Positions 12,561 through 64,000 of a stretch of 64,000 bases of DNA are shown here, one piece after another. A program made the translations under genes and the position numbers. The stretch is taken from the IMG/VR virus record IMGVR_UViG_3300010396_000010, positions 8,350 through 72,349 of that record; one strand, given 5' to 3'. Under the pieces are notes generated by a model, which was given only the letters and a program-made list of their open reading frames with translations, was not told where the DNA came from and made no database searches. Source of the DNA: a virus. Each line of letters begins with the position of its first letter. Position 1 is the first letter of the stretch.

Positions 12561-12796
12561 CCCCCAACCGTCGCGCCCTAGTGAGGCAAGGACGCCTTCG
12601 CCATGTCGAGTAGACTCATTGTCCATCGTGATCCAGAATCGTGCCTACAGCGCGTTACACGACTGCCCGTCCGTGTGCTGTGTAGGCAATATGCAGGAAT
12701 TACCCCAAAACGCTGTTGACAGTAGCCAACGAAAAGTGGTAAGATGTGTCTAAGAAACATTAGTAATCTTTGCATAAACGGCGCGAAAGGAGGCTA

Positions 12797-14727: not shown

Positions 14728-14943
14728 ATGCAAAAGTGGGAATACCTCGTTATGACCGTTGGCCCGAACGATAAGTTGAATGTTCGGGCTATGGGTGAAA
14801 TGGGGGCTGATGGATGGGAACTCGCAGGGATAATGCCTAACGTGAAACCATTTCAACAATCAGCCGGAACGATCAGTATCGGATCTCAACTTGGCACTGA
14901 AAACAAACTGATCTTTAAGCGTCCGGTTCAAGAAGGGGAATAA
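14728..14943 (+). CDS. DUF4177-like protein
   Basis: MQKWEY...GADGWEL...LIFKRP signature. Confidence 0.8.
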   Translation: MQKWEYLVMTVGPNDKLNVRAMGEMGADGWELAGIMPNVKPFQQSAGTISIGSQLGTENKLIFKRPVQEGE

Positions 14944-14947
14944 ACAC

Positions 14948-14988
14948 AAAAGCGGAGGGCGGGATCAGGTGATCCCGCCCTCCGCTTT
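14948..14988. terminator. bidirectional intrinsic terminator
   Basis: AAAA-GCGGAGGGCGGGATCA-GG-TGATCCCGCCCTCCGC-TTT. Confidence 0.9.
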
Positions 14989-15104
14989 GCCGAGGCTCCA
15001 ACACACCCCACCTGCGCATGGTGGTTGCCTCTGCCGTGTGTCGGCGGCGCTGGCGCACCACACCTAGCTTATGCGATGCTCAACCGATGGGTGAATGGTA
15101 CCGG

Positions 15105-15178
15105 CGGGGCCAGTCGGACTTGCACCTACTCTATCACTCGTGGAAAAGCGACGTGCTACTCTTACACTATCTAGCCCC
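15105..15178 (-). tRNA. atypical tRNA-like element (UCC/Gly-like anticodon)
   Basis: GGGGCTA/TGGCCCC acceptor, GTGT/GCAC D-stem, TCGCT/AGTGA anticodon stem, GTAGG-TGCAAGT-CCGAC T-arm; several irregularities. Confidence 0.55.
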
Positions 15179-15334
15179 ATGTATGCCCCAGGCGCTATGT
15201 ACTCCCCTTCGCTGGCTTGTCACTATTCGCTAGTGCAACAACCGGTAGTCGCGTTCGGACTGCATGCCGGTCCTCGGAGAGCCGTTCGTCATCACCAGAA
15301 GGGCATACGTTCCAGTGATGCAGTAGGCACTTCC

Positions 15335-15363
15335 ATCATAGCATATCGCCTACATGTTGTCAA
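15335..15363 (-). promoter_or_regulatory. promoter of the ~380-nt RNA
   Basis: TTGACA-17-TATGAT with GATATG/extended -10. Confidence 0.75.
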
Positions 15364-15374
15364 CAACCTACACG

Positions 15375-15461
15375 AAAACGCCCACCCGCTCAACGTCTGC
15401 GCAGACCGGAGCGGATGGGCGTCTATCACAAGATGCAGCGGGAGACAAAACCTACTGCACG
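15375..15461 (-). ncRNA. predicted trans-acting antisense sRNA (~87 nt)
   Basis: Promoter, 5' hairpin with a UUUUGUCU loop, single-stranded UCUUGUGAUAG, 14-bp terminator stem plus UUUU; seeds complementary to five distant leaders. Confidence 0.75.
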
Positions 15462-15466
15462 TGTTC

Positions 15467-15495
15467 AGTGTCGCATAGACCAGCGCGTGCGTCAA
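15467..15495 (-). promoter_or_regulatory. promoter of the antisense sRNA
   Basis: TTGACG-17-GACACT with TG extension. Confidence 0.6.
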
Positions 15496-15513
15496 GCGCC
15501 ATAGACAGAATGC

Positions 15514-37904: not shown

Positions 37905-39419
37905 CTACCAGTTCGCGGTGTGGAATACGCGGGTATCCTGATGGTCTTTCACCAACGCTAGCCGTTTTTCCAGACTGAGGAACGCCGCGCGTCCCGCCAT
38001 CGCCGTGATCGCGTCACCCACGCCGTCAGCCTGATCATCATGCCGACCATTGGGAATTTGAATCAGTTCGGTTTCATAGTCATAGATCCAGGGAGCGCCA
38101 CGCCGATGGTAGACGGACTTTGCCCGATAGTGCGCCGCCGTTGTTGCCTGGCGACTCTCTTTATCCCCATGCCGCTCTAGTTCGATGATGGGCAGTCCTA
38201 ACCGCCGCGCATACTGGATGAGGGTAAGCTGGTAGGCGACCTTCTCAATGCCCACCGCGTAAGGATGCCATCGCGTATATGCTGTGTTGATCTCGTCCGG
38301 TTGTTCAGGACCAGGGAGTTTCTTGCGAACGATATCCACCACGAAGAAGCGGCCTTGGTGTGAGGCCACCGTCGCAATGACGAAATAGTCCGCCTTGGTC
38401 TTGACACTTGCCGCAGGGTCCACCGCCTGAAACCAGCGACAGGCACGGAAACTGACCGTCTCCTCAACGCCACTACTGTTCGTGAAGGTGATGCATTCGC
38501 GCTGCTCATCGACTTCGGCATACTGGAACCACTCCCGCTTGAAGGTGTTGCCTTCTTCGCTGCCGGGGTTGCCCTGGTAGAGACAGAGGAAATCAATGGG
38601 GTCCAGATCCTTCCGAATCTCGCGCAGCGCGTCAATGCCCCACACATCCGGCCAGTAGGATTCTTCGTTATCCGCCTCGCCCGTAATGGCGGGGAACGTC
38701 ACGAGGTCAAATCCCATCTTTGCTAGTCGCGGCACCGCATCATCATAGTGCCAGCGGTTGCAGACAAAGATGATGCGCCCACCGGGTTTGAGGCGACTCT
38801 TGATCACGGTCATAAAACGCCGGATAAACCGCGCCCGCCACGTCGGACTCTCAATCTCGTTCGGGTCAAACGGGTCGTCCAGAATAATCAGGTCGGCGCG
38901 ACGCCCAAGAGCGCCACCCATGAAGCCCATGCTGGAATACTGCGGGTCTTTCGCGCCCTGGTGACTCCACCCATCCTTGTCAACTATCGGCCATTTGCCG
39001 CTATGATCCCGCCACTTGAAGTACAAGCCCCGACTGGACCAGCCACGTTCTTTGTCCGGCATCACATCAGGAAAGATTTCCTCATGCCGCCCGTTTTGCT
39101 CATACACCTGCTGCAACGCCGTCAAGTAGGCGACAGCTTTATCATCGTTGGCGTGCAGGTGTAGCACAATCCAGTCAGGGTGATTGCCAATAATCCACGC
39201 TGGGGCGATCTCCGAGATCCACGTGCTTTTGCCGCTGCCGGGTGGACATACCACCACCGATCCCTTATTCCACTCCCTTGGCGCGACGGCATTGATAATG
39301 CCCTGATGGTGTGGCGCTGGTCGCAGCCCACGTGTCAGGACGCCATAGATGGCAAGAGATTCCCTCCCCCGGAGGATTTCGAGGGGTTTGAGTGCAGTGG
39401 GATCATCCATGTATTTCAC
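37905..39419 (-). CDS. terL: terminase large subunit
   Basis: PPGSGKST, GRRADLIILDDP, RWHYDD, VDPA, HDDQAD. Confidence 0.95.
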   Translation of the reverse strand: MKYMDDPTALKPLEILRGRESLAIYGVLTRGLRPAPHHQGIINAVAPREWNKGSVVVCPPGSGKSTWISEIAPAWIIGNHPDWIVLHLHANDDKAVAYLTALQQVYEQNGRHEEIFPDVMPDKERGWSSRGLYFKWRDHSGKWPIVDKDGWSHQGAKDPQYSSMGFMGGALGRRADLIILDDPFDPNEIESPTWRARFIRRFMTVIKSRLKPGGRIIFVCNRWHYDDAVPRLAKMGFDLVTFPAITGEADNEESYWPDVWGIDALREIRKDLDPIDFLCLYQGNPGSEEGNTFKREWFQYAEVDEQRECITFTNSSGVEETVSFRACRWFQAVDPAASVKTKADYFVIATVASHQGRFFVVDIVRKKLPGPEQPDEINTAYTRWHPYAVGIEKVAYQLTLIQYARRLGLPIIELERHGDKESRQATTAAHYRAKSVYHRRGAPWIYDYETELIQIPNGRHDDQADGVGDAITAMAGRAAFLSLEKRLALVKDHQDTRVFHTANW

Positions 39420-39645: not shown

Positions 39646-39864
39646 TTACGCCTCTTTCGGCGCTTCCCGCTTATTTGCTCGGATAATCAAGGTCTTTGGT
39701 AGTCCTCTCGCTGTCAATAGTTCGCGCAATTCATCATACGAAAACACTCTCGCCCCTTCGGGAATGGTGCATATCTCGCAGAGTGGCGATGGCATCATAA
39801 AACCACCACGGATATCATGTGCAACCATATCCGCAATCGCCTCTTGATATTCATCATTCGTCAT
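39646..39864 (-). CDS. hypothetical protein
   Basis: ATGA-coupled ORF. Confidence 0.5.
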   Translation of the reverse strand: MTNDEYQEAIADMVAHDIRGGFMMPSPLCEICTIPEGARVFSYDELRELLTARGLPKTLIIRANKREAPKEA

Positions 39865-40163
39865 GGCTTCTCATTCCTGGCTATAGCCGCATTCGCCCAC
39901 ATGACCGCTTCTTCCAATGCTGTCAACGCCAAACTCCGCTCTCGTGACTCCGGGGCCAGTTCGAGAAAGAGTAGCGCCAACGCTTTCCCCGCATCCCGTA
40001 GTTGCCCATACCGCACCACCTGCGTTCCCTGTGGTGCATGATAGGTGAAGTTATGGATCACCCGATCCCGATTAACGGGCGTCACCTTTGACTTCTTGGC
40101 TGCCACTGGCTTTCCCTTTAGTTGTGTTGCAGGGATGAATAACTCTTTGTCGTCACTAGCCAT
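39861..40163 (-). CDS. Acb2/Tad1-like hairpin protein (candidate immune-signal sponge)
   Basis: FTYHAP...SRERSLALTALEEAVMWANAAIAR. Confidence 0.65.
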   Translation of the reverse strand: MASDDKELFIPATQLKGKPVAAKKSKVTPVNRDRVIHNFTYHAPQGTQVVRYGQLRDAGKALALLFLELAPESRERSLALTALEEAVMWANAAIARNEKP

Positions 40164-40166
40164 TGC

Positions 40167-40502
40167 TTATTCCTCACCCATCATGGCACGAAACACGATC
40201 TCATATTGGCGCGTGAACTCTCGGTCCGCCTCGCGCATCACGTTATAGATCCGTCCTGCTTCTTCCCGCCAGTGCTGCTGCATCTGCCGCTCGGCCTCAT
40301 CACCGAAATCATCATGCAATCCTGCTACGATGCGCTCTATTTCCCGTAGCGTCTCTTCACTTATCACTGCCTGCCCCTTCGTCTGCTCCAATGAAATTTC
40401 TTTGTAGAATTTAGCGCGGTGCTTAGCCTTATCCACCGCGCCCCTTGTGCAATCATCGGCCCCTATGCAGTTACACAGCCGCCCCTCGGTGACACGTGAC
40501 AC
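40167..40502 (-). CDS. hypothetical protein
   Basis: ORF upstream in the same unit; start uncertain. Confidence 0.45.
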   Translation of the reverse strand: MSRVTEGRLCNCIGADDCTRGAVDKAKHRAKFYKEISLEQTKGQAVISEETLREIERIVAGLHDDFGDEAERQMQQHWREEAGRIYNVMREADREFTRQYEIVFRAMMGEE

Positions 40503-40677
40503 GGCGCATGCTGCGGCGAAGACATCTTATCAGCGATGGGCGACGGCACCACATGACGGCGCTCACAGCGCGTCACGGCATGCACCTCGCAGGTATGGCG
40601 TCTATACGCGCATGCGCCTACGCACACACGGATATCGAACGGTAGGCGCATAATGGATATGACTATTGGCAGTATAT

Positions 40678-40706
40678 TTGACATGGATACTCAGATGTGT
40701 GATACT
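40678..40706 (+). promoter_or_regulatory. promoter of the RNA-rich small-gene operon
   Basis: TTGACA-17-GATACT with GATGTG extension. Confidence 0.7.
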
Positions 40707-40712
40707 GAATCA

Positions 40713-41020
40713 ACAACTGAATACCACCTGATGAGCGAAGGGGACACGCGGGACCACGAACACCGTTACCAAGACTGGTCCATCTTGGTTACTTGAACAA
40801 TTGAATCAGCAGAGACGTATTAGAGCGGACCTATCCGATCTTATGAGTAGCGTGCAGTGTGAATGCATGCCGAGATCTCAGAGTAGGGGGACGATCCTCA
40901 ACCTGTGAGAGCCGGGACTCTGATATGCATAGCGGCAAGCAAAACCAGTGTTTGGTAGGACTCATAATCCTGCCTGTGCAGATGCGACTTCTGCGCTTGT
41001 CGCCCGGCTCAGATGAGCCT
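40713..41020 (+). ncRNA. predicted structured leader RNA with several pseudoknots
   Basis: About ten helices, including GGACCA/TGGTCC, TTATGAG/CTCATAA and GAGCCGG/CCGGCTC long-range pairs. Confidence 0.6.
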
Positions 41021-41049
41021 ATCACAAGAAAAGAAACGAGACAACGACC

Positions 41050-41220
41050 ATGTCAAAGGAACAACTGCTCAAGATCATTGCTCATGCACAAGCACAAATC
41101 GATGAGATGGAAGCAGAGGAATCACTGTACGAGTATGAGTACCGCGAAGAGCGCGCTTTGGATATGCGTATGGAAGCATACGCCTATTATAGCGGACTCA
41201 ATGACGACTACGATTATTAG
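41050..41220 (+). CDS. 56-aa acidic, Tyr-rich protein (not in the ORF track)
   Basis: MSKEQLLKIIAHAQAQIDEMEAEESLYEYEYREERALDMRMEAYAYYSGLNDDYDY, after motif copy 1. Confidence 0.75.
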   Translation: MSKEQLLKIIAHAQAQIDEMEAEESLYEYEYREERALDMRMEAYAYYSGLNDDYDY

Positions 41221-41284
41221 GCCGAAACCTAGGGGACTATACATCCCTGATGGTCTGCTGGTTATGCCAGCACTGAGGATGGCC
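41220..41284 (+). ncRNA. type II hammerhead ribozyme
   Basis: GGCC-GAAAC..GGUC^-UGCUGG/CCAGCA-CUGAGGA-U-GGCC; predicted cleavage after 41255. Confidence 0.85.
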
Positions 41285-41330
41285 GCTCTCACTGAGAGCT
41301 AGTATCGCAAGAAAAAAAAAGAGACAAACC

Positions 41331-41594
41331 ATGAACGTCTATCAGCAGACCTTGTACGACCGTGCAGCAGATGGCACTTTCCAACCCAGCGTAACGGAAT
41401 CCGGTGTCGCCTGTCAGTCGTGCGTACAAGACTGGATCAATGGCAGCAGTCAACAGCGTCGGCAAGATGATGGATCGCTCGTCTTGGTTGAGTGGCATCA
41501 TTACAATCTGATCTCCATCATCATCATCAACCAGCCAAACCAATACCTTGACGCATGCGAGACGTTGCACACTGCATCATGCGTGTGCTGCTAA
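41331..41594 (+). CDS. small Cys-containing hypothetical protein
   Basis: Follows motif copy 2. Confidence 0.65.
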   Translation: MNVYQQTLYDRAADGTFQPSVTESGVACQSCVQDWINGSSQQRRQDDGSLVLVEWHHYNLISIIIINQPNQYLDACETLHTASCVCC

Positions 41595-41633
41595 GACAGC
41601 ACACATCACAAGAAAGAAAAGAGACAAACCACC

Positions 41634-41843
41634 ATGAAAACCATCATGCTGCTGATCGTATCCATCATCCTGTTGTGCGCCATTGGCACCGCACACATGC
41701 ACACAGCAACCTACCCCAGCAACGTGTGTGCCAGCAATCAGCACATTGCCTCGTATGCACAGCCAACCACCGTGCGGGTACTGGTGCCAGGCAGCACCGA
41801 TCCCCAAGTGGTCGATATCCAGCAGTGCGTAGCCAACCACTAG
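41634..41843 (+). CDS. small secreted/membrane protein
   Basis: MKTIMLLIVSIILLCAIG signal-like N-terminus; follows motif copy 3. Confidence 0.65.
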   Translation: MKTIMLLIVSIILLCAIGTAHMHTATYPSNVCASNQHIASYAQPTTVRVLVPGSTDPQVVDIQQCVANH

Positions 41844-41940
41844 CCATAGCGCATGCCGGTACAGCCGTAGCCTTCGATGGCAGCATGCGTACCGATCCTC
41901 AGAGCGAGGATCTATCACAAGAGAAACGAGACAAGAAACA

Positions 41941-42231
41941 ATGATGCAAGCAAACAAGGCGTACCACTTCATCACGAGCGCGGGCGAAATGGGCATATAC
42001 AGTACCCGCAATCGTAACACGGCCATCATCCATGCCATCGTGCGCGATACTACCGCATATGACGATCTGGCTCGGTATGCATCGAGCGATTATCCAGTTT
42101 TCGCTCGCTGCGTGCGGGGGTACATCAACGATTTCCACGAGTCGCTATCCCCGATCTTGTATCAGCTTGCAACGATCCCCAATCTCTGCTGGCTGTATGA
42201 CATGCTCCGGCAGATGGCCGATATCGGATAG
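41941..42231 (+). CDS. hypothetical protein
   Basis: Follows motif copy 4. Confidence 0.65.
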   Translation: MMQANKAYHFITSAGEMGIYSTRNRNTAIIHAIVRDTTAYDDLARYASSDYPVFARCVRGYINDFHESLSPILYQLATIPNLCWLYDMLRQMADIG

Positions 42232-42239
42232 GGTGAGGA

Positions 42240-42299
42240 TGGGGGATATACTTCTCTAGAGAGGATATATATATCCTCTCTAGAGAAGTATATCCCCCA
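42240..42299. repeat. perfect 60-bp palindrome
   Basis: TGGGGGATATACTTCTCTAGAGAGGATATA|TATATCCTCTCTAGAGAAGTATATCCCCCA equals its own reverse complement. Confidence 0.97.
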
Positions 42300-42392
42300 G
42301 ATCTGCCGCATTGCAAGGCAATGCGAAAGTTTCACCACGAACTGCATAACATTGCATGAGAGTACCGCAAAAACACCGCACAATGCGGAACA

Positions 42393-42902
42393 TTATGCCT
42401 CATCATCGGATGGCGTGATCTGGCGTGGTGCTTCACTGCGAGACTGGATGATCTGCGCGTCGATCATGGCGATCTGATCGTCACTGATGATCCCGGCGCG
42501 TTGTGCTTCGGCGAGGATGTGGACGTGCAGGTGTTGCTGTGGCTGTGGTGGTGTCTGGTCCTGGGGACGTTGCTTGGCATAGGACTCAGGATGGCGGCGC
42601 TCTAAGAGCCACGCTGCGGCTTTCCAATCGGTGTCGGCTGCGGCTGTGACTTTGACCAGTAGGGCATGAGCGCCAAGGGCTTGCGCACGTTGGAGAGACG
42701 CAACTAATGCAACATATGGTTGCTCTCCTGACTCACCTTTCCGTAGCCATTGCCGTAGCGTCTCATGCGAGATACCGCAAGCCTCAGCAGCAAGGTGGTA
42801 CGTCATGCCGTCAGCAATGAGCGCGACCAGTTGCACCATGAGGCTATCGGTGAGTTTGGTAGGTCGCCCTCCAGCGTAGCGCGTGATATCGCTCTCACTC
42901 AT
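42393..42902 (-). CDS. terS: putative terminase small subunit
   Basis: GRPTKLT, HTH AAEACGISHETLRQW, DWKAAAWLLERR. Confidence 0.75.
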   Translation of the reverse strand: MSESDITRYAGGRPTKLTDSLMVQLVALIADGMTYHLAAEACGISHETLRQWLRKGESGEQPYVALVASLQRAQALGAHALLVKVTAAADTDWKAAAWLLERRHPESYAKQRPQDQTPPQPQQHLHVHILAEAQRAGIISDDQIAMIDAQIIQSRSEAPRQITPSDDEA

Positions 42903-42917
42903 GGTACTATCCTTTTG

Positions 42918-42954
42918 ACTAATACTTGACATGAGTAGCAGGATATGCGAGAAT
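42918..42954 (+). promoter_or_regulatory. phage promoter family member
   Basis: ACTAATAC-TTGACA-17(GATATG)-GAGAAT. Confidence 0.7.
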
Positions 42955-42986
42955 GAAGTATCACAAGTGAATCGAGACAAGAGACA

Positions 42987-43628
42987 ATGCAAGTTACTGT
43001 TACCGTGCAAGTGCCTGACAAGCACCGCACACGTGTTCGTCTGTTGCGCATGCAGGTGCGACCCGGCGCAGTGGCGCTAGGGAAGGCGCACAGCCGGGCA
43101 TTGCCAGCAACGCAAGAGATGCCGGTTATCGCGTCACCACTGGACGATCCTAATTTCATGGGCGGAGTGATGGCGTTACTGTATACGCCAGATCCCACAC
43201 CCGGTCCCAAGCCACGTAAGGCATCGTGTGATATTGATGCGAAGCTCCTGGTTGAACTGTGCGATTTCCGTGAGACAGCGCAACGCAACGCCGATCAAGA
43301 GCAACAATTTGCCCAGGATCGCGCCGATGAACGCAGCACAGAAAACAAACTTCGGCAACGTCACGGCAAGGAATTGATTCCCGCTGATCCGGAAATGGAG
43401 CAAGAATCGGCTGGTAAGATTGCCGGATACTTGCTCGTTGCGGATGCGATGCAAGAAGTTATCACGGCATGTAAACGCGGTTTCGATGATTATCTCGCAT
43501 GCTTACCAGCGCAAGTGGAATATCTAGAAAGCAACATGACCAATCAGAACGACCCTTTTAGCAGCATGCGCGACAAAATTATTGCCGCCGAAGTCTCTGA
43601 AATCACGCGCCGATGGATGGGGGAATAA
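42987..43628 (+). CDS. hypothetical protein
   Basis: Follows motif copy 5; first gene of the parB-like unit. Confidence 0.7.
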   Translation: MQVTVTVQVPDKHRTRVRLLRMQVRPGAVALGKAHSRALPATQEMPVIASPLDDPNFMGGVMALLYTPDPTPGPKPRKASCDIDAKLLVELCDFRETAQRNADQEQQFAQDRADERSTENKLRQRHGKELIPADPEMEQESAGKIAGYLLVADAMQEVITACKRGFDDYLACLPAQVEYLESNMTNQNDPFSSMRDKIIAAEVSEITRRWMGE

Positions 43629-43632
43629 GACG

Positions 43633-44619
43633 ATGGCAACGCCAGTTACCTACGATCTCCGTGTTGTCGATATCGCCCTTGTGGATGACAACCCGTTTCA
43701 GCCGCGCAAGAGTTACGACGAAAAGTATATCTCTGAATTAGGTGCTTCATTCCGAGAAGAAGCAGCAGCACAAGGGCAAGACGATCCCGGCTATGGCGTG
43801 AAACAACCGCCTCCGGCCCGCGAAGTCGATGGTCGTTACCAGTTGGCAGCGGGCCACTGCCGGAAGCGCGGTGTGCTGAAAGCAGATGGTAAAGTGTTCC
43901 GGCTGATTGTTGAGGATCTCTCCGATGCCGATATGCGCCGTATCGCTATGATTGAAAACATGCAGCGTCAGGACATGAGCCATTCCGATACCGCAACCGG
44001 CATTATGGATTATCTCAGAAGTCAAGGCTGGAAAAAGGGTGGTATTGAACCAACAAATGAACGCGCCATCAAAAAGACGGCTAAGGATCTTGGCAAGCCA
44101 TGCAGTGAGATTCGCGATTATATCGCGTTCTCTGCCTTGCCAGGCATGGTGCAAGGCATGGTCGATGCCGGACATCTCTCATTCCGACTGGTGGGCGATC
44201 TGGCAAAACTGCCGTTCGCTCAGAGAATGAAAACCTTGCGCATGATCACCACTGGCGGTAAAACAGTGGCAGAAGCAGAAGTTTTGATTAAAGCGGCGAT
44301 CAAGGAAATGGACCGGCAAGAGCAGATGCAACGCTTGGGCATGGCGGGCGATCAAGGCGCACTATTCGATGTGCCTGAGACGACGCCAGAGACGCGCCAG
44401 GCACAGGCAAAGTATGCCGCCGATATGCAGATGGTCGCAACCATCCTTGCCAAGTATGGCGATGCTGAGGGGGATGCGCTCACAGCCGCCATGCCGCTCT
44501 TAAACTTAGACATCGAACGGGAACGCATCAGGATTATCATTGCCACCGCGAAGCGGATGGACAGCACGCTCATGGCCGCGCAGTCACAACGCGATATCGC
44601 AACCATCATGGGAAAGTGA
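43633..44619 (+). CDS. ParB/Spo0J-like protein
   Basis: NPFQPRK, YQLAAGHCRKRG, MIENMQRQDM, HTH. Confidence 0.9.
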   Translation: MATPVTYDLRVVDIALVDDNPFQPRKSYDEKYISELGASFREEAAAQGQDDPGYGVKQPPPAREVDGRYQLAAGHCRKRGVLKADGKVFRLIVEDLSDADMRRIAMIENMQRQDMSHSDTATGIMDYLRSQGWKKGGIEPTNERAIKKTAKDLGKPCSEIRDYIAFSALPGMVQGMVDAGHLSFRLVGDLAKLPFAQRMKTLRMITTGGKTVAEAEVLIKAAIKEMDRQEQMQRLGMAGDQGALFDVPETTPETRQAQAKYAADMQMVATILAKYGDAEGDALTAAMPLLNLDIERERIRIIIATAKRMDSTLMAAQSQRDIATIMGK

Positions 44620-44620
44620 T

Positions 44621-44657
44621 ACTAATAGTTGACAGTGATGGCAGGATGTGACACGCT
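44621..44657 (+). promoter_or_regulatory. phage promoter family member (weak -10)
   Basis: ACTAATAG-TTGACA-17(GATGTG)-CACGCT. Confidence 0.5.
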
Positions 44658-46016
44658 AGCATTGTCAAGAGCGAACGAGAAAGGAAATGACATCGTGTTA
44701 TCTTTACATCAAATCATTAGGCTGCGCTGGATGCGCTCACTCGGCTATCAGATCCCGCCATTCGATTCGATGACACCGTTTGCTGCTGATCTGTGGATCG
44801 ACAAGGGCGAACGGGAAACGGGTGGACTGGAAAAGGCGTATCGCCAACAGATCATTAATCGGGTATTCAACACCAGCGTATATGCTCTGCATATCGCGCG
44901 GAATGCTGAGAGTATCGACATTTCACAGGAGTTGATTGAAAGGATTCGGTATATTGCAGAAACGCGCGAGATGCGATATTACACGCTAATTCGTGCGTGG
45001 TCATGAAAGTCAGGAAGTCGCCAGGATTGTAGGAAAGTAGAAAGGAAACGAGACGATGAGCCTTGCATGGCAAAAGGCAAAAGCCATCATTGGGTATTAC
45101 ACCACGAAGTTGACCATGCGCCACACTGATCCCGACTTCCAAGAAACCGTAGTCAAAGACATTGCGGCTATTGAGAAGTTGGCAGAACTGGATCCAGGGG
45201 AATTACAAAACTTGCTCCGCACCTACGCGGAGCAACTACGCCAGAACTATTTGAAAGTCAGGTGAACACCATGCGCGTGAAATTCTTTCGCAATCCGGTT
45301 GTGCGCCTGACGATGAAAGCGATCATCCTCAGCGCCATTGCCAAGAAGAAGAAAACCACGAAGCGCAAGTAACAACGTCAGGCAGGGACGCCACTCACAG
45401 CCCATTGTGTCAAATATTGACACAATCCGTCTGGTACACTATCAGCAGCAAGAAATATCCCGACTGAGGGATTGGTCACAGCGGCCAATATATTCAACAA
45501 CAAGGAGAATAGAACTATGACACTCCAAGAAGCGTATCAAATCATCAACGACGTTGACGAGGGAACCCGAACAGATCGCTACTATCGGCAACTCGCCCAA
45601 ACATCGCCCATTCCGTTTCACTCTGCTGAGGAGTTGGAAGAGGCATGGCGGATCGTCAACGAAGACACGGAAAAACGGATACAGGCAGAACAGGACGCCA
45701 TGCGGGAGCGGGGATTTGTTGAGGTTGATGGTCAATGGATGAAAATAGAGGGCGAAGGGAAGTAACAGAAAGGAACACAACCATGATCGACCAGGAAAAG
45801 CTCTTTCAGGAGATCGTGCGAGAGATCGAGGGACTCATTGCAGAGCAAACAAGATTGCTTGGATCTCCATTACCAACCGCCGTCATCATCCATGACAAGG
45901 TTCAGCAAAACTGGTATTCGATTAATAATCGACCTGAATTTGTAGCGCGACTACGCGAGCATTTCGGGGTAACTGGCGCGGATATCAGCGGATATATCAA
46001 TCTACCGCGCCTGTGA
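44629..46016 (+). other. cluster of small hypothetical genes (~44695-45006, 45056-45265, 45271-45372, 45517-45765, 45783-46016)
   Basis: Consecutive ORFs with purine-rich SD-like leaders. Confidence 0.55.
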
Positions 46017-46205
46017 AAGAACATGTGCGCTGCTCCCGAACAGATCAGCGCACATCAGCAGAAACGACACAGCAGACAACGACGACAGCCACAGACAGAG
46101 AACCTTGCCACCAGCAGTATACCCAAGCCTAGTACAGAAAAGCAAGACTCCCCCAAGAAACCACCGCGAACTGCTGAGAATTGCAGCGATTCGCGGTGGT
46201 TTTCC

Positions 46206-46472
46206 TTATGCAAACGCATACTGAGGCCACGCGGGAAGATACCGCTGCTGCTGCTCGAAGTAATAGCGGTCGGCGCGATGCAGCAACGCCACCTGCGCGT
46301 CAATCAGCGCGGCGAGTTGGTCTCCTGATAATCCCTGCCAGCGGTTCACCACCAGCACCACATGACGGCCCAGCTTCACATCGACCAACGGCGCTTTCCT
46401 CGATGCCACAAACCGGACCCTGACCCCGCGCATCCGCGCATCATCCACTGCTGTTGCAAGCCCTGTAGCCAT
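46206..46472 (-). CDS. small protein, possibly a degenerate ImmA/IrrE-like fold
   Basis: GVRVRFV...VLVVN...LAALI pattern but no HEXXH; divergent from the XRE gene. Confidence 0.4.
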   Translation of the reverse strand: MATGLATAVDDARMRGVRVRFVASRKAPLVDVKLGRHVVLVVNRWQGLSGDQLAALIDAQVALLHRADRYYFEQQQRYLPAWPQYAFA

Positions 46473-46691
46473 ATGGACTACTCCCCCTTCATCGGAATCC
46501 CGAATCAATTTTGCTACTAATGCCAATCAAACTCGCAATCGTTCTGCTCCTATTATGCCAGCAACATTATCATTTGTCAAGTATATGATACCAAAGACGC
46601 TACTAACTCACTGTAAAGGCAGGTCTTGAATTGTGGTATACTATGAGCGGAACACACAAACGACACGGCAGCAGCAACGAAAGAGGACCAT

Positions 46692-46940
46692 ATGACGCTC
46701 AAAGAACTGCGCGAGATCCGAGGGTACGCCCAGCGCGAAGTAGCAGATCGTCTGGGGATTAAGACGCCGAACACGATTAGTAATTGGGAGCGTGGGGCCA
46801 CTCAGCCCGTCCTACCGATGCGTCGCCTATTAGCGGAGTTGTACGGCGTGAGCATCGTGGAAATTAACCAGGCGATTGATGAGACAGCGGCATCGCGCAC
46901 CGGCACGACTACGCAGATAGACGCCATACAGGATCAATGA
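46692..46940 (+). CDS. XRE/Cro-like HTH regulator
   Basis: LKELREIRGYAQREVADRLGI..NTISNWERG..P. Confidence 0.92.
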   Translation: MTLKELREIRGYAQREVADRLGIKTPNTISNWERGATQPVLPMRRLLAELYGVSIVEINQAIDETAASRTGTTTQIDAIQDQ

Positions 46941-46942
46941 AC

Positions 46943-46977
46943 GCAGGGGCGATCTCCCCGAACGAGATCGCCCCTGC
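46943..46977. terminator. hairpin between convergent genes
   Basis: GCAGGGGCGATCTC/GAGATCGCCCCTGC. Confidence 0.7.
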
Positions 46978-46989
46978 TGGTATTCACTC

Positions 46990-47936
46990 TTATTCGCGGG
47001 GCATCGTGACCTCATGCTGATGCCCGTTGGCGCACTCCCACACCTCAATGCCGGGATACGTCTCAATGGTATGGATAATGCGCTCCATCGCACCGCAGCG
47101 GGCGCAGGTGGACACGTCAATGATCGTTCCACGCTGGAGGTTGGGCGCGAGTGTCTCCACACTGGCACGCTCAATGAGCGCAGCTTGCACCTGCGCGATG
47201 TGGTGCTGGCACGCGAAATTGCCCAACAGTGACCCGCCCACTTGAATCAACACCGTAGCCAGTTGAAAGCATCGCACCGATCCAGCGAGTTCACAGCGAA
47301 AATCGTGCGTTCCTGTGATCGGCGTGCGAACAATTTGATAGATGCGTCCGTTGTGTTCCACCGACTGTTCTTGCTCTTGCATCTGCTTCACTCCTTATGC
47401 CCTTGCCAGAATGGCCTGTGTTTGTTGTTGCACCTGATCGAGGAAGGACTTGTAGCGCACCATGAATGAGACGATACACTGAAACGTTTCTGCTGATTCC
47501 GACAGCGCCAACAGTCCCTCTGCCTCATTCCTGAAATGGCACACTTCCCGCAGCACGCTTTCGGCGTATGCGCGAAACGCGCTGAACTGTGGACCTGCTG
47601 ACCCATTGACTATCGCCCGCTGCTGCATCTCCATCTGGTCCATGCTCTGAACCATTATTCGCAGTTGCGCCTGTACCATTGCATAGGGTGGCATCGTTTG
47701 TTCTCCTATCCTTGTGGTTCCACTAAGCGTCGTTCGCCGTTCTCCGACACCAATTCCACATGCGTCTTGTCGCCAAACTTCGCCCACCAGTTGACGGCCA
47801 GCGCCATCGCGTAATGCTCGTCACCGTCATAGGTTGACCAGTCCAAGAGGTTCCCCTTCTCATCCAGCACGCGCAACGTTTTCGTGTTGGTAGGGGGATC
47901 AGGAATGGGATCGTTAGCTACCGTTACACTTGCCAT
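46990..47936 (-). other. three small hypothetical genes (46990-47391, 47395-47694, 47706-47936)
   Basis: Consecutive ORFs with AGGAG SD; the first is Cys-rich. Confidence 0.55.
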
Positions 47937-57156: not shown

Positions 57157-57738
57157 ATGGAAGCGATCAAAATCGAGGAAACAACCTACCACGAAACGCA
57201 CGTGATTAATTCCTGCTTCAGCTATGGTGATGCGAGTGTAACGACCTTCACTATGGGCAAAATCCGCGAACACAACGAACGACGGGAATATGCAACGCTG
57301 CGCATTTACACCGAAGACGGCGCGCGAACCATTCAGCTTGAAGCTGATCAAATGGATGAAGTTTCTCGCCTCTGGCAAGGCGAGAAAGAGTCACACGGCC
57401 TCTCCGAACTGCGCGAGATGTATGACGCATTGGTTGCTGAGCATCAAAGCCTGATACAGTCACATGACAACCTTGGCATATCCTTTGGTGTGCTTGCCGA
57501 GGATTACGAAAGCAAGTCCACTGATCTTGCCAAGCACTACAACATCAACAATCAGGCGTTGCTCGATGAAAACGAGGCGTTAAAAAAGCGCATCGAGCAG
57601 TTACAAAACGTGGCCATTCAAGCGTACTTGGACATCGAGAGCGGTCATGCACAGAGGTCATACGACGCACTGGTGGCAATGCATCCCGACGAAAACGATC
57701 CCTATGGCCTGAATGAAGTCGCCAGCACCACAGCATAA
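57157..57738 (+). CDS. coiled-coil hypothetical protein
   Basis: ORF with purine-rich leader. Confidence 0.6.
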   Translation: MEAIKIEETTYHETHVINSCFSYGDASVTTFTMGKIREHNERREYATLRIYTEDGARTIQLEADQMDEVSRLWQGEKESHGLSELREMYDALVAEHQSLIQSHDNLGISFGVLAEDYESKSTDLAKHYNINNQALLDENEALKKRIEQLQNVAIQAYLDIESGHAQRSYDALVAMHPDENDPYGLNEVASTTA

Positions 57739-57802
57739 CCCCCCATTCCTCCAACACCGGGCGCGTCCGGCGAGATGCGCCCCACACATGAAAGGACCAG
57801 CC

Positions 57803-58657
57803 GTGACAGAAGAAACCTTATCACCATCCCTCATTCGCCAGTTGATGCGCCCCGGCGCACTGGCTGAGGACACTGCGCCACCCAACCTGGACGACGCGCA
57901 ACAACGCGCCCTACACACTGCCCTTGCCGCACTCGATGCGCAGGATCGGGAGATCCTCCAACTGCGCTACGATGCGAATTGCACCATTGAGGAGATCGCC
58001 GCGCATCTCCTGACCAGCCCGCAGATCGTGGAGCATCGAGAACAGGACGCCCTCCACCAGTTGCGGCAATATCTACCGCCAACGCGAGAGGACATCGCAG
58101 CATCACCCACGCGGCGCTATGTGCCAGCACCAGCACAGAAGAAACCCGTTCCACCAACCACAGGCAAAGGAAGGGCAATCAGTGAGAAACAATTTGCTGC
58201 GTATATGGCGGCAAACCCTGATGCCACCATACGGGGAACCTCTGAGGATCTCGGTATTTCTTCTGCTACCGTGACCGTGTATCGCAAGGCATGGCATGAA
58301 CACCAAGCGCGACACGTTCCCGCTGCACCAGCACCACAACCCGTTCCGTTGCCACCTGCGCCCGCGCCTGTGCCAGCACCACCAAGCCAACCGGAACCGG
58401 AGCCGCCCACGCCCACCAATGCAGCCTACACGCGCACGCTCTACGAGGAACAAGTCTATCAAGCGCGACTGTGGATGGAAATGCTGGAACGCCAGTGGCG
58501 CGAGGCAAAGGAAAACGCAGAGGAGGCAGTCGAATACGCCGATACCGTGCAACAGCGGTATCTCCAAGCCAAAGCCAACTACGAACGCGCACAGAAGATC
58601 GCCCGCGCTCACTATGCGATGTTGCACGGCCAAGTTGTTGAAGAATTGGAGGGATAA
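57803..58657 (+). CDS. sigma-70 region-4-like HTH protein with second HTH and coiled coil
   Basis: ALAALDAQDREILQLRY...TIEEIAAHL; ATIRGTSEDLGISSATV. Confidence 0.75.
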   Translation: MTEETLSPSLIRQLMRPGALAEDTAPPNLDDAQQRALHTALAALDAQDREILQLRYDANCTIEEIAAHLLTSPQIVEHREQDALHQLRQYLPPTREDIAASPTRRYVPAPAQKKPVPPTTGKGRAISEKQFAAYMAANPDATIRGTSEDLGISSATVTVYRKAWHEHQARHVPAAPAPQPVPLPPAPAPVPAPPSQPEPEPPTPTNAAYTRTLYEEQVYQARLWMEMLERQWREAKENAEEAVEYADTVQQRYLQAKANYERAQKIARAHYAMLHGQVVEELEG

Positions 58658-58659
58658 AA

Positions 58660-61550
58660 ATGCTGCTACTCGCACCACCGAAAACGCTTGACTGTGGATG
58701 CCTCATGCCCTACGGCACGGCTGAACTACTCCACAATCCCTGTCTCGTCTGCTGGTGCTGCACCGACCACTGCACCTGCACACGGCCAGGTCGCGCCGAG
58801 ATCTTCATGGGCTTGGGCGAACTGGAACGCCTCATCGGCTGCCCCAAAGGCATCTCCACATTGAGTGTGCGCTATGACGCTGAGCGAGAAGCCATCGCCA
58901 TCGAACTGATCGGCCAAGGCTTGCCGCCCTGCGCCGAGGGAGAACGCCCGCAGCGCGTGCAACGCATCTTTTCCGCGATGCTTGACGGATCGCAAACAGT
59001 GAGCTATGCGTGGGGCGAGGCGGTGCAGCATGAATAGTGTGGTCGTTCTCGCCGCCGCCGTCATCTTCCTACTAATGGCTGGCTTGCTCATGCGGTCGCT
59101 GTATTTCCACAGCGTCGAGAAGATGGACGCGCTGGGCAAGGAGATGGAGGCCAACCTATTGCTGCTGACATCGGATGCCATCGCCGCAAGTGGTGAGGCG
59201 GAGCAGAAGAAAACCGAACTGCGCATGATGCAGATGCAGGTCCAGATGCAAGGGCGGTCCCGTCGCCCTATCGTTCTCATTCCCATCGCTGGACAATCCG
59301 AACAACTGCTGGTCGGACCAACACCAGCGGCAGATATGAACTAAGGAGCAACTCACATGCAACCCGATCCGCAAGTCGTCGCACGCCTGAAACTGGACGC
59401 AGCACGAAAGCGCCTCCTCGATGCCGTAAAATCCTTCCGCTCGGACCTATTTCGGTGGCGCATGGAACAATTTCGGTGTGAAGATACGGCGCAGTCGCCA
59501 GCAGCGTATCACGAGGCAGAGGCAAGAGCCGAAGCCCTGACAACGATCATCCGCATGCTTGCGGAATATCCTGGCACGCCTGTCAGCATCCACGCATTCA
59601 CCACCGGACATACCATGATTCGTCGGATGAAGGCCCAGATGGAGTACACGCTGGGACTGCTCGATAAATTTCATCGGATGTTGGTGGAGGCACAAGGCGA
59701 TGCGGAGTTACCAGAGTGATAGGCTCAAAGAACCTTTACATCTCCGTACCGATCTCTTAGGTAATTTTAGAAAGGGAACACAGACATGGCGAGCGATATC
59801 ATGAGAGGCCAGTTAAAGATCGATCAGCGCGTCCGGCACATTGAGACTGGCCGGACGGGGACAATCAGGGAAATGCGCGCAAGTTTTAACCGACGCGGTG
59901 ATCCTTGCCAATCAATCCGTGTTTTCTGGGATGACCGGAAACCTTCTCAACGCAGACTAACCACATGGATCGCTGACTACAATCTCATTGATGCTGGCTT
60001 GTGAGTGAGCGCGGCGAGTGACGTACCGTAGCCCCTCTCTTAGCGAGGGGGGCATAGAAGAATTTTTGGAGGTCGAGGTGAAGCGCGTGGCGAACAAGCG
60101 TATCCGCAAAAAGCAGTCAACTGATACGGGCTGGTTCCGTAAGGCGAGCAAGGCGATGGATACTCTCATGCGGCCCAAATATCCGTATCGAGGTCGCTTG
60201 TACACCCATAACCTCCAACGCAACAAGCTCGCGTATTTCACCATCGTGCAGAAAACCTTGCGTGATGAAGGTGAGTCGAGCAATGCAGCAGCGGTGCGCG
60301 CTTGGCAGCTACAAAACCACTCCCTCTGAATAGGGGGGGCATAGAGAAGATTGAAGGGACCAACGAACATGACAGACAATCAAAACACCCCGATTCCCGC
60401 TCATACAAACACGCCAGAAGTTCAAGCTCACTTGTATGAGTGCAACGCCGATGAACTTTGTTTCGTGTGTGGTGGATTGGGTCAGGTGCGCGTACCAAAC
60501 AGCGGCTTATTTACCCATACCTATCATTGGGAACCGTGTGAGACGTGCGGCGGCTTTGGATATGAGCGATTGTAGCGAAGACATGCCGTTCCCCCTACAT
60601 CACTGATGTTGGGGGGCATAGTTGAATCTTGAAAGGAACACGCGATGGGCAAAATAACGATGACCAAGTTAACGACAGAGACCATTTTTGCAAGCGCATT
60701 TGTTCTCGGAAAAGTCGCATCACTGCTAGATCGCGGACTTATTGATACGGCAGATGGCGGCATTAGCGATTTTTCGCCAGAAATACAGGTTGAGATGCAT
60801 GAAGCTGCGAAACGGCTTCGCCGTGAATTAGGCGAGCGACATGCAAACTTAGATCATGCCCTAAAAATGCTCACGGCACAAGAAAAATGAGCAGCAGCGA
60901 GCGCGTCCGTCTCCCCCTTCCCAAGCGTAGAGAGGGGGGGCATAGCTCCATTCTCCTAGCGTTCAACCTCTGCATGGTAAACTGCCAAGAAACCATGCAG
61001 AGGTTCTTCTATGTCGAAAACAGTTGGCATTATCACTGCGGCCATCCTCTTGCTCATGGGTTGCTGCATTCTGAGTGTGGTGGCGATACGCAGCAGTGCC
61101 ACTTCCACCACAACCACCTCGGCGCGTGTCGCTACCGTTCCCGCGACCAGCACATCACGCCCACCCATCCCAACACCTGTGCCGACCATGACAGCGCAGC
61201 AGCGCACCGACGCGCAGATCGTCGCCCTCATCAAGCCGGACGGCCAGCAGTTCAGCATCGCACACCAGAAGGGCGACATCATCATCTATGATGTGTGGGT
61301 AAATGGGGTAGCGAACGATCAAGTAGGGCTGGCATTCGCTAAAATCGAAATCTACGGGGTGATGAAGGCCATGTATACGCAGTGGCATGGATCGTTGACG
61401 GAGATTGATGTCGTCATTCAGGGACCGGATAGAATCGGCAACCTCGCTGCGGCTTACCTCTTTGCCGACACCGCTGCACATTTCGACTGGCCGCACCTCG
61501 TCCCCGCAACGGCATGGCAGCAATACGACTACGCCGAATCCAGCCTATGA
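58660..61550 (+). other. cluster of small genes (58660-59037, 59030-59344, 59357-59719, 59786-60004, ~60076-60329, 60369-60575, 60645-60890, 61011-61550)
   Basis: Consecutive ORFs; the last has an N-terminal TM helix and T/P linker. Confidence 0.55.
60006..60945 (+). repeat. four C-rich/G6-7 hairpin-CATAG repeats between small genes
   Basis: Copies end at 60057, 60344, 60621 and 60945. Confidence 0.8.
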
Positions 61551-62719: not shown

Positions 62720-62960
62720 CTCAGATACCCCATAGCTAAAAGCTAGGGGCTTGTGAAAGCGAGCCTGGATCTGACCAGTCTCAGTCCTGAAAGGGGCTAT
62801 GTTAGGGGCGAATACAACGATAGGCACCGTTGGGTGGCACCTCAGCCTGACGCTCTGCGGCCAACAGTTAAACAGATAGACGGGGTGCGAGTCAGTGCTG
62901 GTGGCAAACAAACCGCCTCATAACCTTGACGAGGGGAACCTTACCTGGGCAACCAGAGAT
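62720..62960 (+). ncRNA. omegaRNA scaffold (HEARO-like)
   Basis: TCAGATACCCC..CTAAAAGCTAGGGGCTTG..GACCAG.CTCAG..ATAGGCACC..CTCTGCGG..GTTAAACAG..GACGAGGGGAAC directly upstream of iscB. Confidence 0.88.
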
Positions 62961-62975
62961 TCTTAGGAGTTGGCA

Positions 62976-64000
62976 ATGTCATTCGTATTCGTAGTCGATC
63001 AGGACCGCAAGCCGCTTGAGCCGGTGCATCCAGGGCGAGCGCGGTTTCTGCTCAGTGCGGGACACGCCGCCGTTTTGCGGCGCTATCCCTTCACGATCAT
63101 CCTGAAAGAAGTCAATCCCGATGCCGAGCCGCAGCCGTTGCGCGTGAAACTTGATCCGGGCAGCAAAACGACCGGTGTAGCAGTGGTCAATGACGACACT
63201 GGGCAAGTCGTGTGGGCCGCGGAGATTACCCATCGCGGACAGCAGGTGAAGGCCAGCCTGGACAGCCGACGGGCGCAAAGGCATGGGCGACGGTCACGCC
63301 ATACCCGCTATCGTCAGCCGCGATTTGATAACCGCACCCGCCCTGCTGGATGGCTACCACCCTCGATGGAAAGCCGATTAGCGAATACCCTGACATGGGT
63401 AGCACGCCTGATGAAATGGTGTCCCATCGACGCGATCAGCATGGAACTGGTGAAGTTCGATACCCATCTCATGCAGAACGCCGAAATCAGCGGGGTGGAA
63501 TATCAGCAGGGCGAATTGCAGGGCTACGAAGTGCGGGAATATCTGTTAGAGAAGTGGCATCGAGCCTGTGCGTACTGTGGGGCTAAGGATGTCCCCTTGC
63601 AAGTGGAACATATCATCCCGCGCAAACGGCAGGGTTCAGACAGAATCAGCAATCTCACCCTGGCTTGTGAGTCGTGCAACCAGCGCAAGGGGACACAGAC
63701 CGCCGCAGAGTTTGGTTTTCCTGATATCCAAGCCCAGGCCAAACAGCCATTACGGGATTCCGCAGCGGTGAATACAACGCGCTGGGCGCTGTACGAACGC
63801 TTACAAGGGCTGGGGTTGCATGTTGAGGTGGGAACGGGTGGACGAACCAAGTGGAACCGCACCCAACGTGGCTTGCCGAAAACACATTGGCTTGACGCGG
63901 CATGCGTGGGGGCGTCCACGCCCGCTACCTTGCATGTGGGACAGATCGTTCCTCTGGCGGTCACGGCGATGGGGCGGCATAGTCGGCAGATGTGCCGAAC
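62976..64000 (+). CDS. iscB: RNA-guided endonuclease IscB (3' truncated; absent from the ORF track)
   Basis: MSFVFVVDQDRKPLEP (PLMP-like), LDPGSKTTG RuvC-I, Arg-rich bridge helix, GWLPPS, ELVKFD, HNH CAYCG..EHIIPR..SNLTLACESCN, THWLDAACVG. Confidence 0.96.
   Translation, partial: MSFVFVVDQDRKPLEPVHPGRARFLLSAGHAAVLRRYPFTIILKEVNPDAEPQPLRVKLDPGSKTTGVAVVNDDTGQVVWAAEITHRGQQVKASLDSRRAQRHGRRSRHTRYRQPRFDNRTRPAGWLPPSMESRLANTLTWVARLMKWCPIDAISMELVKFDTHLMQNAEISGVEYQQGELQGYEVREYLLEKWHRACAYCGAKDVPLQVEHIIPRKRQGSDRISNLTLACESCNQRKGTQTAAEFGFPDIQAQAKQPLRDSAAVNTTRWALYERLQGLGLHVEVGTGGRTKWNRTQRGLPKTHWLDAACVGASTPATLHVGQIVPLAVTAMGRHSRQMCR

Follow-up and report, generated by a model that had tools for sequence, protein, structure and literature searches.

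In a 64,000-nt window of viral DNA (the whole stretch that was analyzed, i.e. bases 8350-72349 of the 72,349-bp IMG/VR record IMGVR_UViG_3300010396_000010 and most of a complete soil phage genome) we observed a repeated leader module at the starts of mostly small genes, along with a minus strand locus for a candidate small RNA (sRNA) complementary to that leader. The module is ordered as a GC hairpin, ATCRCAAG (box 1), a purine spacer, GAGACAA (box 2) and an ATG. The candidate sRNA carries exact complements of both boxes, and the segments holding them are identical in the single relative that was found, a set of short phage contigs in a Ktedonobacterales-labelled metagenome-assembled genome (MAG; G001) with a terminase large subunit (TerL) 73-74% identical to that of this phage. 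We favor, and consider moderately probable, a full model in which translation of every leader gene is blocked by an ~88-nt phage sRNA that base-pairs with the two leader boxes. Feature coordinates are collected in Table 1.

Seven full copies of the leader were observed in the 72-kb genome, all on the plus strand, with six of these preceding genes (five in the window and one outside). Box 1 is ATCACAAG, with the variant ATCGCAAG at 41304, reads (U)AUCACAAG as RNA, and begins 2-6 nt past each hairpin. Within the operon leaders it is followed by a 6-9 nt purine-rich spacer, box 2 and, after a further 3-6 nt, the ATG. Box 2 ended 0-6 nt before an ATG in six of the seven full copies, and that ATG opened the best-scoring coding frame. 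A genome-wide scan added the copies at window 15425-15448 and genome 4241-4262, the latter lying outside the window between a VRR-NUC-like open reading frame (ORF) and a 79-aa ORF. The copy at 15425-15448, in its plus strand reading, has a hairpin but no ORF after it. A profile made from 11 leaders and run over the genome returned no further copy. Each box alone was near chance (10 matches to box 1 and 11 to box 2, each against 5.7 expected), while the reduced joint pattern CAAG-N6-9-GAGACAA had 7 matches against 0.14 expected, a number reached by none of 100 shuffles. Full box 1 was present in six of these seven matches and absent from the match at 53403. Partial resemblances were also observed on the plus strand. 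A degenerate leader-like copy at 46029-46205 has a hairpin (GTGCGCTG/CAGCGCAC) and then ATCAGCAG...CAGACAA with no ORF; past it lie ~100 nt rich in A and C, and then a terminator-like hairpin bearing TTTT. A half-leader at 45029-45058 (GAAACGAGACG-ATG, with one change in box 2 and no box 1) precedes a 69-aa ORF at 45056.

The four internal leaders are each headed by a hairpin, with stems of 5, 6, 8 and 7 bp that are unrelated in sequence. Folding the 28 nt ahead of each box gave energies of -8.4 to -13.4 kcal/mol; 10.9% of 3000 random 28-nt genome windows reached -8 kcal/mol. These hairpins, the conserved motif after each of them, and a fifth copy behind a promoter had been described in an initial annotation made from the sequence alone, and all were found where it had placed them. 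The fifth copy (42960-42980) has no hairpin, starts 6 nt past its promoter-like site and carries an overlapping second box 2 at 42981-42987. The hairpins are followed by UAUCACAAG with no U-tract, and no plus strand terminator-like site was called in 40000-47000. The loop of the leader 3 hairpin contains the ORF C stop codon. Rfam searches of the leaders and hairpins returned no family, just hairpin-type microRNA noise. The four-gene operon lies antisense between terS and terL, also as first annotated, with terS identified as a terminase small subunit (phrog_4102, 3e-26). Judged by sequence, it likely starts at the promoter-like site at 40678-40706, ~340 nt ahead of the first ATG; no other plus strand promoter-like site was called between 40706 and 41050. 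A perfect palindrome past the end of the operon (42241..42298) is probably, from its sequence, a two-way transcription barrier, and the relative has a different palindrome at the same position. The segment ahead of leader 1 (40707-41005, plus strand) would correspond to ~340 nt of untranslated RNA with several hairpins, for which we found no Rfam match and no counterpart in the relative.

One explanation of this arrangement is processing, as the initial annotation had proposed, in which an endonuclease site at each hairpin would yield monocistronic mRNAs whose cut 5' ends (AUCACAAG...) match that of the promoter-proximal fifth copy. Hairpins stand directly ahead of all four internal leaders, and transcription of copy 5 is predicted to begin on the A of ATCACAAG or beside it, 6 nt past the -10, the same end that a cut past a hairpin would leave. 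However, the hairpin in the relative lies downstream of the promoter and within the transcript, whose predicted natural 5' end includes it, and stems of 5-8 bp are too short for an RNase III substrate. The RNase III intercistronic sites of phage T7 are long (~20 bp or more) irregular hairpins, unlike the 5, 6, 8 and 7 bp stems here. We consider processing unlikely, although it could coexist with the sRNA model.

The six leader ORFs had coding scores of 0.09-0.44 (best of six frames), compared to 0.12-0.41 for 17 genes with known homologues, and longer antisense ORFs in the same region were not coding by score. The initial annotation had suggested host-takeover, anti-defence or toxic proteins, but none of the six leader proteins had a match in Pfam or PHROGs. 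A search for homologues of ORF E among 5.8 billion proteins returned itself alone, no usable Atlas match was found for it, and its AlphaFold model was poor (predicted local distance difference test, pLDDT, of 45). The start regions of these genes were found to be unusual. Their pairing with the 16S 3' tail (GGATCACCTCCTTTCTAG, taken from the 16S gene of the MAG) was weak, at -2.9 to -5.1 kcal/mol in the six leader genes, against medians of -6.5 (first start) and -8.1 (best start) in 85 other code-like ORFs and -2.8 in random windows, which bears out the earlier description of leaders with no canonical GGAGG. The minimum free energy (MFE) of the segment from -28 to +18 was 0 to -3.8 in all six leaders (-2.5 kcal/mol for the translation initiation region of leader 1), compared to a median of -7.3 in 19 other genes; 10% of 1000 random windows of this type were at or above -4. 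The A content of the leaders was 46-61%, and no exact complement of either box was present in the MAG 16S rRNA. The leader is thus a distinct, open start region poor in Shine-Dalgarno (SD) sequence. Because it is unstructured and A-rich, ribosomes may be able to start there with weak SD pairing.

The copy with no ORF is the site of the candidate anti-leader sRNA, which is read from the opposite strand. Its locus opens with the promoter-like site, 19 nt past the point where the last gene of the virion block (15514-16818) stops. The first stem-loop displays UUUUGUCUCC, with a loop that holds the exact complement of box 2, and the linker holds that of box 1. The 91-nt stretch of the locus folds at -47.5 kcal/mol (z -6.15), with none of 200 shuffles folding as well. 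No code-like ORF was found over the locus. In an Rfam search of 14900-15520, bacterial and phage sRNA families gave no match at E<=1, and none reached the gathering score anywhere in the window. Going by predicted features, the locus resembles a generic terminator-ended sRNA gene in its promoter (sub-consensus), stable structure, GC hairpin with a U-tract, lack of an ORF and conservation. The initial annotation had proposed an RNA-level, sRNA-gated function for the leaders. Comparative sequence lends weight to that proposal, with a minus strand locus (15462->15375) that holds exact complements of the boxes and is conserved with covarying stems. The sequence was found in one DNA run, which may be the source sample, and in no RNA run. 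In both phages the virion block ends with this locus, which borders the integrase region. An adjoining minus strand segment (14940-15363) has a strong promoter-like site (TTGACA-17-TATGAT with TG, 15363->15335), then ~385 nt with no code-like ORF and an 18-bp terminator (14988->14949), with a fold z of -3.25. It had no Rfam family and one weak tRNA-like match (18.5 bits at 15107-15176). Possibly this segment encodes another non-coding RNA, of larger size, or is related to attP; a search of the MAG for an attB-like match to the 385-nt ORF-less region gave weak matches alone (E>=0.01).

Pairing between the sRNA and the leaders was expressed as a net energy, i.e. that of the sRNA and target folded together minus that of each folded alone. 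An earlier duplex scan, in which GC-rich windows scored high, was weakly discriminating and was replaced by these energies. All six leaders had net energies between -12.9 and -16.8 kcal/mol (-14.6, -12.9, -14.5, -15.1 and -14.2 for leaders 1 to 5), while 18 of 19 other start regions scored 0.0 to -4.5. The mean for 300 random windows was -3.3 (sd 2.3), with 0.3% at or below -12. In the relative, four of five leaders were at or below -10, compared to 1.7% of 299 random windows.

Five leader copies were observed in the relative, on three contigs. Across the 4.9 Mb of the MAG, a strict leader pattern had four matches and its reversed control none. The contigs with these matches all bear phage homologues or cassettes of a phage-like type, and the leader is therefore a phage signal and not a host-wide one. 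Near-consensus sigma-70 promoters precede four of the five copies. The three copies on one contig (C731) have promoters called at 12, 11 and 11 of 12 consensus positions with TG, a fourth promoter was seen by eye on C374, and one of the five has none. These four leaders share a short hairpin (GAGTGTC...GACAC or a variant) that starts about where transcription should. The fifth copy, and likewise its counterpart at genome 4241 of this phage, is placed between a pair of genes that run in the same direction, and extends over the end of a VRR-NUC-like gene. The genes behind the leaders were mostly different between the two phages, at conserved junctions. The VRR-NUC-like gene is followed by the 79-aa ORF here and by a cytosine-methylase-like ORF in the relative, while the space between terS and terL holds the four leader ORFs here and other ORFs in the relative. 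ORF F alone among the leader genes has an orthologue that also follows a leader in the relative. Such differing content at conserved junctions suggests that the leader also serves as a recombination linker for newly acquired genes.

The sRNA locus was also found in the relative. Contig C421 has the same arrangement directly past the stop of the homologous gene (72-76% DNA identity), with a promoter TTGACA-18-TACAAT at 11 of 12 consensus positions (one site, with 0.2 expected). Between the phages, the sRNA promoter is conserved in its -35 and in parts of its spacer, and the 14-nt loop core AGGTTTTGTCTCCC and the linker TCTTGTGAT are identical. In contrast, six of the seven closing-stem pairs of stem-loop 1 are changed on both sides with pairing kept, a count that was made by folding each RNA alone and comparing pairs outward from the shared loop, and that depends on the chosen register. 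Compared to shuffles, the two sRNAs had fold z values of -5.0 and -5.2 (the latter for the relative). The terminator of the relative has a different sequence, with another copy of UUGUCUC located in its loop. Unpaired seeds that are conserved, together with stems that covary, are a mark of a functional structured RNA. Further carriers were sought. In IMG/VR the leader pattern gave more than 115 single chance matches, with none of the 80 matches listed being multi-copy, and the sRNA core pattern gave no match. The one sRNA core match in metagenome contigs fell inside an FtsX-like coding sequence and was taken as chance. When 169 genomes from the class of the MAG were searched with a relaxed sRNA pattern, just one genome besides G001 had a match, namely G070, which had no stem at that position and leader-pattern counts at control level (7 vs 4).

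These comparisons bear on a second explanation, in which the leader acts in cis only, as an SD-independent translation enhancer with an insulating hairpin and as a homology patch for shuffling ORFan cassettes, with no trans RNA. The copy at 15425 would then be a decayed cassette end that now forms the terminator region of the virion operon. The open, A-rich, SD-poor start regions fit this explanation, as do the exchange of leader-linked genes at conserved junctions, with ORF F alone shared, and the four of five leaders in the relative whose near-consensus promoter and related hairpin make up ~85-nt repeated cassettes. Comparable elements would be the promoter early stem-loop (PeSL) cassettes of T4-type phages, between which recombination is documented (PMC2839356), and the start-associated repeats of Cluster K mycobacteriophages. 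However, a function in cis leaves without explanation why two precise boxes are kept in both phages while the spacer between them varies. It also sits poorly with the ORF-less copy, in which both boxes are letter-perfect in both phages, the stems have changed in a compensatory manner, and a promoter-like site is present on the other strand, while a decaying relic should lose its boxes first. We judge that a cis-only function has a low probability, on a par with processing.

A third possibility is that the boxes are bound by a protein of the phage or the host, either an RNA-binding translational repressor or a DNA-binding repressor, with 15425 as a further site or decoy. RegA of phage T4 is an RNA-binding translational repressor that recognizes many start regions, and the stoperators of Cluster A mycobacteriophages are asymmetric sites for a DNA-binding repressor that are spread through intergenic regions. 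The leader motif is likewise asymmetric and in a single orientation, it occupies short intergenic spaces beside gene starts, and in the relative the copies follow strong promoters at a distance of ~20-50 nt, a place suited to an operator. For the start-associated sequences (SAS) of Cluster K mycobacteriophages, RNA and protein factors were both left open by the authors of PMC3203893. The distance between boxes is 3-11 nt in the relative, with a duplicated box 2, compared to 6-9 nt in this phage. Such variation is awkward for a protein reading both boxes, and is more readily accommodated by RNA duplexes with internal loops than by a protein site of fixed geometry. Furthermore, the 15425 copy is located where transcription runs on the opposite strand, which does not match the logic of stoperators, a structured RNA with seeds in its loop and linker is not predicted by protein binding, and no candidate regulator gene was found among the ~30 of ~100 ORFs scanned. 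We regard a protein site as quite improbable, more so than the two explanations above.

In the full model that we favor, the sRNA would be made from the minus strand (~15462->15375) from its own sigma-70-type promoter, and would probably also form the 3' terminus of the late virion transcript. Box 2 would find its complement in the loop of the first stem-loop, and box 1 in the single-stranded linker before the terminator; the resulting duplexes, of 9-12 bp with box 1 and 7-10 bp with box 2, would cover the ribosome landing site. Since box 2 ends so close to the AUG, the duplex would fall inside the ribosome footprint, and we infer that repression, rather than activation, is the most likely outcome. 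Six leader cistrons in three transcription units, mostly small ORFans, would be shut off together, either late in infection (as the 3' end of the late transcript) or in the lysogen (from its own promoter). The GC hairpin would insulate or stabilize the 5' side of the mRNA, a role suggested by the position of the hairpin in the relative, at the predicted 5' end of primary transcripts.

Several observations weigh against this model. The start region of the ParB-like gene, which has no leader, had a net energy of -12.1. The sRNA showed no specificity for its own leaders, with the sRNA of the window pairing with the leaders of the relative as well as, or better than, the sRNA of the relative itself; as each sRNA pairs about equally with the leaders of the other phage, cross-immunity would be expected. 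The complementarity of the sRNA arises partly by construction, as the locus is simply the motif in its opposite-strand reading. The promoter (TTGACG/GACACT) is weak by consensus and below the threshold of the promoter scan, and the promoter, the ends and even the transcribed strand of the sRNA are predictions. RNAalifold on a MAFFT alignment misaligned the stems and gave no common stem and no compensatory pairs, and as only two genomes carry the system, the covariation rests on one pairwise comparison. Stem-loop 1 of the relative also scores as terminator-like on the opposite strand, and the sRNA locus could be just a two-way terminator region. Hfq was not found in the phage or in the MAG, which is incomplete, and this is not evidence of its absence.

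Table 1. Positions of the leader, sRNA and landmark features within the window (arrows give the reading direction on the minus strand).
Feature	Position	Strand	Description
sRNA promoter-like site	15467..15495	-	TTGACG 15495->15490, 17 nt, GACACT 15472->15467; TGC before -10
Candidate sRNA	15375..15462	-	~88 nt; seventh leader copy read on minus strand
sRNA stem-loop 1 (predicted)	15460->15433	-	7-bp stem; loop core AGGUUUUGUCUCCC at 15453->15440
sRNA linker (predicted)	15432->15425	-	Eight unpaired bases CUUGUGAU, exact complement of box 1
sRNA terminator (predicted)	15424->15376	-	16-bp GC-rich hairpin, then UUUU
Promoter-like site	40678..40706	+	TTGACA-17-GATACT; TG before -10; 10/12 consensus matches
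Leader 1	41006..41049	+	Hairpin 41006-41019 GGCTC/GAGCC, -8.5 kcal/mol; box 1 ATCACAAG 41021-41028; spacer AAAAGAAAC; box 2 GAGACAA 41038-41044; CGACC before ATG
ORF B	41050..41220	+	56 aa; acidic, pI 4.16; no family; codon score 0.44, best of 6 frames
Leader 2	41285..41330	+	Hairpin 41285-41299 GCTCTC/GAGAGC, -8.4 kcal/mol; box 1 ATCGCAAG 41304-41311; A9 spacer; box 2 41321-41327
ORF C	41331..41594	+	87 aa; no family; codon score 0.09, best of 6 frames, weakest of the four
Leader 3	41583..41633	+	Hairpin 41583-41604 GTGTGCTG/CAGCACAC, -13.4 kcal/mol; box 1 41605-41612; box 2 41621-41627
ORF D	41634..41843	+	69 aa; hydrophobic N-terminus; no family; codon score 0.24
Leader 4	41894..41940	+	Hairpin 41894-41912 GATCCTC/GAGGATC, -10.9 kcal/mol; box 1 41914-41921; box 2 41928-41934
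ORF E	41941..42231	+	96 aa; ORFan; codon score 0.31
Palindrome	42241..42298		58 nt, perfect; between plus strand operon end and terS end
Leader 5	42926..42986	+	Promoter-like TTGACA-17-GAGAAT 42926-42954; box 1 42960-42967; box 2 42974-42980
ORF F	42987..43628	+	213 aa; heads rightward operon running into ParB-like gene
terL	37905-39419	-	Matches annotated large terminases
terS	42393-42902	-	Terminase small subunit
Integrase-family gene 1	9791-11137	-	
Integrase-family gene 2	12770-13774	+	
Sigma-factor-like gene	57713-58657	+	

The record from which the window was taken has direct terminal repeats (IMG/VR class) and a CheckV completeness of 100%. A virion block on the minus strand (terL, portal, protease, tape measure and tail proteins), along with two integrase-family genes, a sigma-factor-like gene and a ParB-like gene in the rightward operon begun by ORF F, indicates a tailed phage with temperate-type genes. 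No close relative was found among 50,697 phage records, and neither the leader region nor the sRNA locus had a blastn match in phage records. TerL, searched against IMG/VR both as a single protein and as a 2-row alignment, had best matches of just 30-31% identity, and in the 169 genomes of the class of the MAG it matched G001 plus one weak match at 32%. By MAG binning alone, the putative host is assigned to the Ktedonobacterales. Other features were observed in the window. Between terL and the leader operon, the minus strand at 39861-40163 encodes a protein of 100 aa that carries an Acb2/Tad1 hairpin domain (Pfam PF24729, 2.4e-20), the members of this family being sponges for defense signalling nucleotides. 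A HEARO RNA (Rfam RF02033, 117 bits) and then an HNH-containing ORF of at least 343 aa occupy 62720-64000 (plus strand), reaching the window end. Window segments 290-470 and 10031-10216 (left arm, including an integrase gene) matched 5-6 different G001 contigs at 69-79% DNA identity, and these look like paralogous recombinase or mobile-element genes common to the phage and its putative host.

A wider reading joins three ideas: that the portable leader makes a plug-in regulon, that the sRNA gives RNA immunity in the lysogen, and that the same logic holds for the SAS of Cluster K, a puzzle of 15 years' standing. Taken jointly, we offer these as tentative and somewhat doubtful. If true, a gene that recombines in via the leader would fall automatically under the same RNA switch, which would couple the acquisition of ORFan cassettes to ready-made regulation, and the sRNA of a lysogen would silence early ORFan genes in the resident phage as well as in incoming relatives. 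Known phage antisense RNAs mostly control one neighboring gene or operon, while here one trans RNA would address a family of mRNAs. It would also give a first view of how gene expression is controlled post-transcriptionally in Ktedonobacteria (Chloroflexota) phages, of which our literature search found no study, a testable idea for the start-associated repeats of mycobacteriophages, and, in the leader and sRNA, a compact and orthogonal translation switch.

Among known systems, the leader is most readily compared to the SAS and the extended SAS (ESAS) of Cluster K mycobacteriophages, the role of which was still called unknown in papers of 2024 and 2025. SAS is a short asymmetric repeat in one orientation, 3-9 bp before the ATG of non-structural and often unrelated genes, is absent from the host genome, and has one odd copy away from a gene start; about half of the SAS copies are preceded by an inverted-repeat element with a putative promoter. 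The leader resembles SAS in its many copies of one orientation, with six of seven located 0-6 nt before an ATG, and in its absence from the host. The two differ in sequence: with up to 2 mismatches allowed, the 13-bp SAS consensus GGGATAGGAGCCC matches the window once (1.16 expected), at a site in the virion block, and a control run of this search on phage Anaya gave 17 matches (0.75 expected). SAS holds the SD core AGGAG and is one 13-bp block, while the leader has weak SD pairing and two boxes with a variable spacer, and no partner RNA is reported for SAS in the accessible texts. In Mycobacterium phage Anaya, 16 of the 17 SAS matches in 20000-60835 are on the plus strand. The single reversed match (39845-39905 of the stretch L180; record ~59844-59904) lies in a 385-nt gap between genes 96 and 97, where a rightward transcript would hold the anti-SAS core in a 10-nt apical hairpin loop (-26.7 kcal/mol, z -2.83, with 4 of 200 shuffles folding as well). 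From this predicted fold, SAS may also have an antisense partner.

The c4 RNA of phages P1 and P7 pairs through two boxes (a'/b'). The candidate sRNA resembles the immunity RNAs c4 and CI (the latter of satellite phage P4), which are small structured trans-acting RNAs of temperate phages that act through short boxes on more than one target site and silence genes that must stay off. It is likewise predicted to hold seeds complementary to at least two mRNA sites over the ribosome binding site. While c4 and CI are processed from the transcript that they control, and act on one operon, the sRNA here would be encoded ~26 kb from its nearest target, on the other strand and behind its own promoter-like site, with six targets in three transcription units. 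The host phylum is also different, and there was no Rfam match at E<=1 (C4 included if in the library). Details of the P4 CI RNA are given in PMC4825925, and according to PMC8198154 c4 is needed for full repression of ant.

The PeSL elements of T4-type phages are repeated cassettes of ~70-100 nt with a sigma-70 promoter, a stem-loop and a start region, which flank ORFans in plastic regions and mediate gene shuffling between close relatives (PMC2839356 and PMC4122927). The cassettes of the relative fit this description well. Gene replacement of the PeSL type was also observed, with none of the six leader proteins having a family and content differing at two conserved junctions. A promoter stands directly ahead of one of the six leaders, in the window, and the other five have none of their own. 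PeSL stem-loops terminate transcription and the elements end in a normal SD, while the hairpins here have no U-tracts and conserved boxes take the place of the SD. Finally, STnc6030 (BTP1), sar (P22) and OOP (lambda) are prophage antisense RNAs, active in blocking related phages or in the timing of phage genes, that pair with phage mRNA, block its translation or lower its stability, and can give superinfection immunity, as set out in a 2025 review (PMC12197685). These are cis-encoded with one target each, while the sRNA here would be trans-encoded, with a target family set by a portable leader. In open-access text (supplements aside), our search found no earlier account of a portable leader with a multi-target trans RNA. 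By its sequence the system is a member of none of those compared, and what seems new is the combination of a portable, start-linked leader with a candidate trans RNA for many targets.

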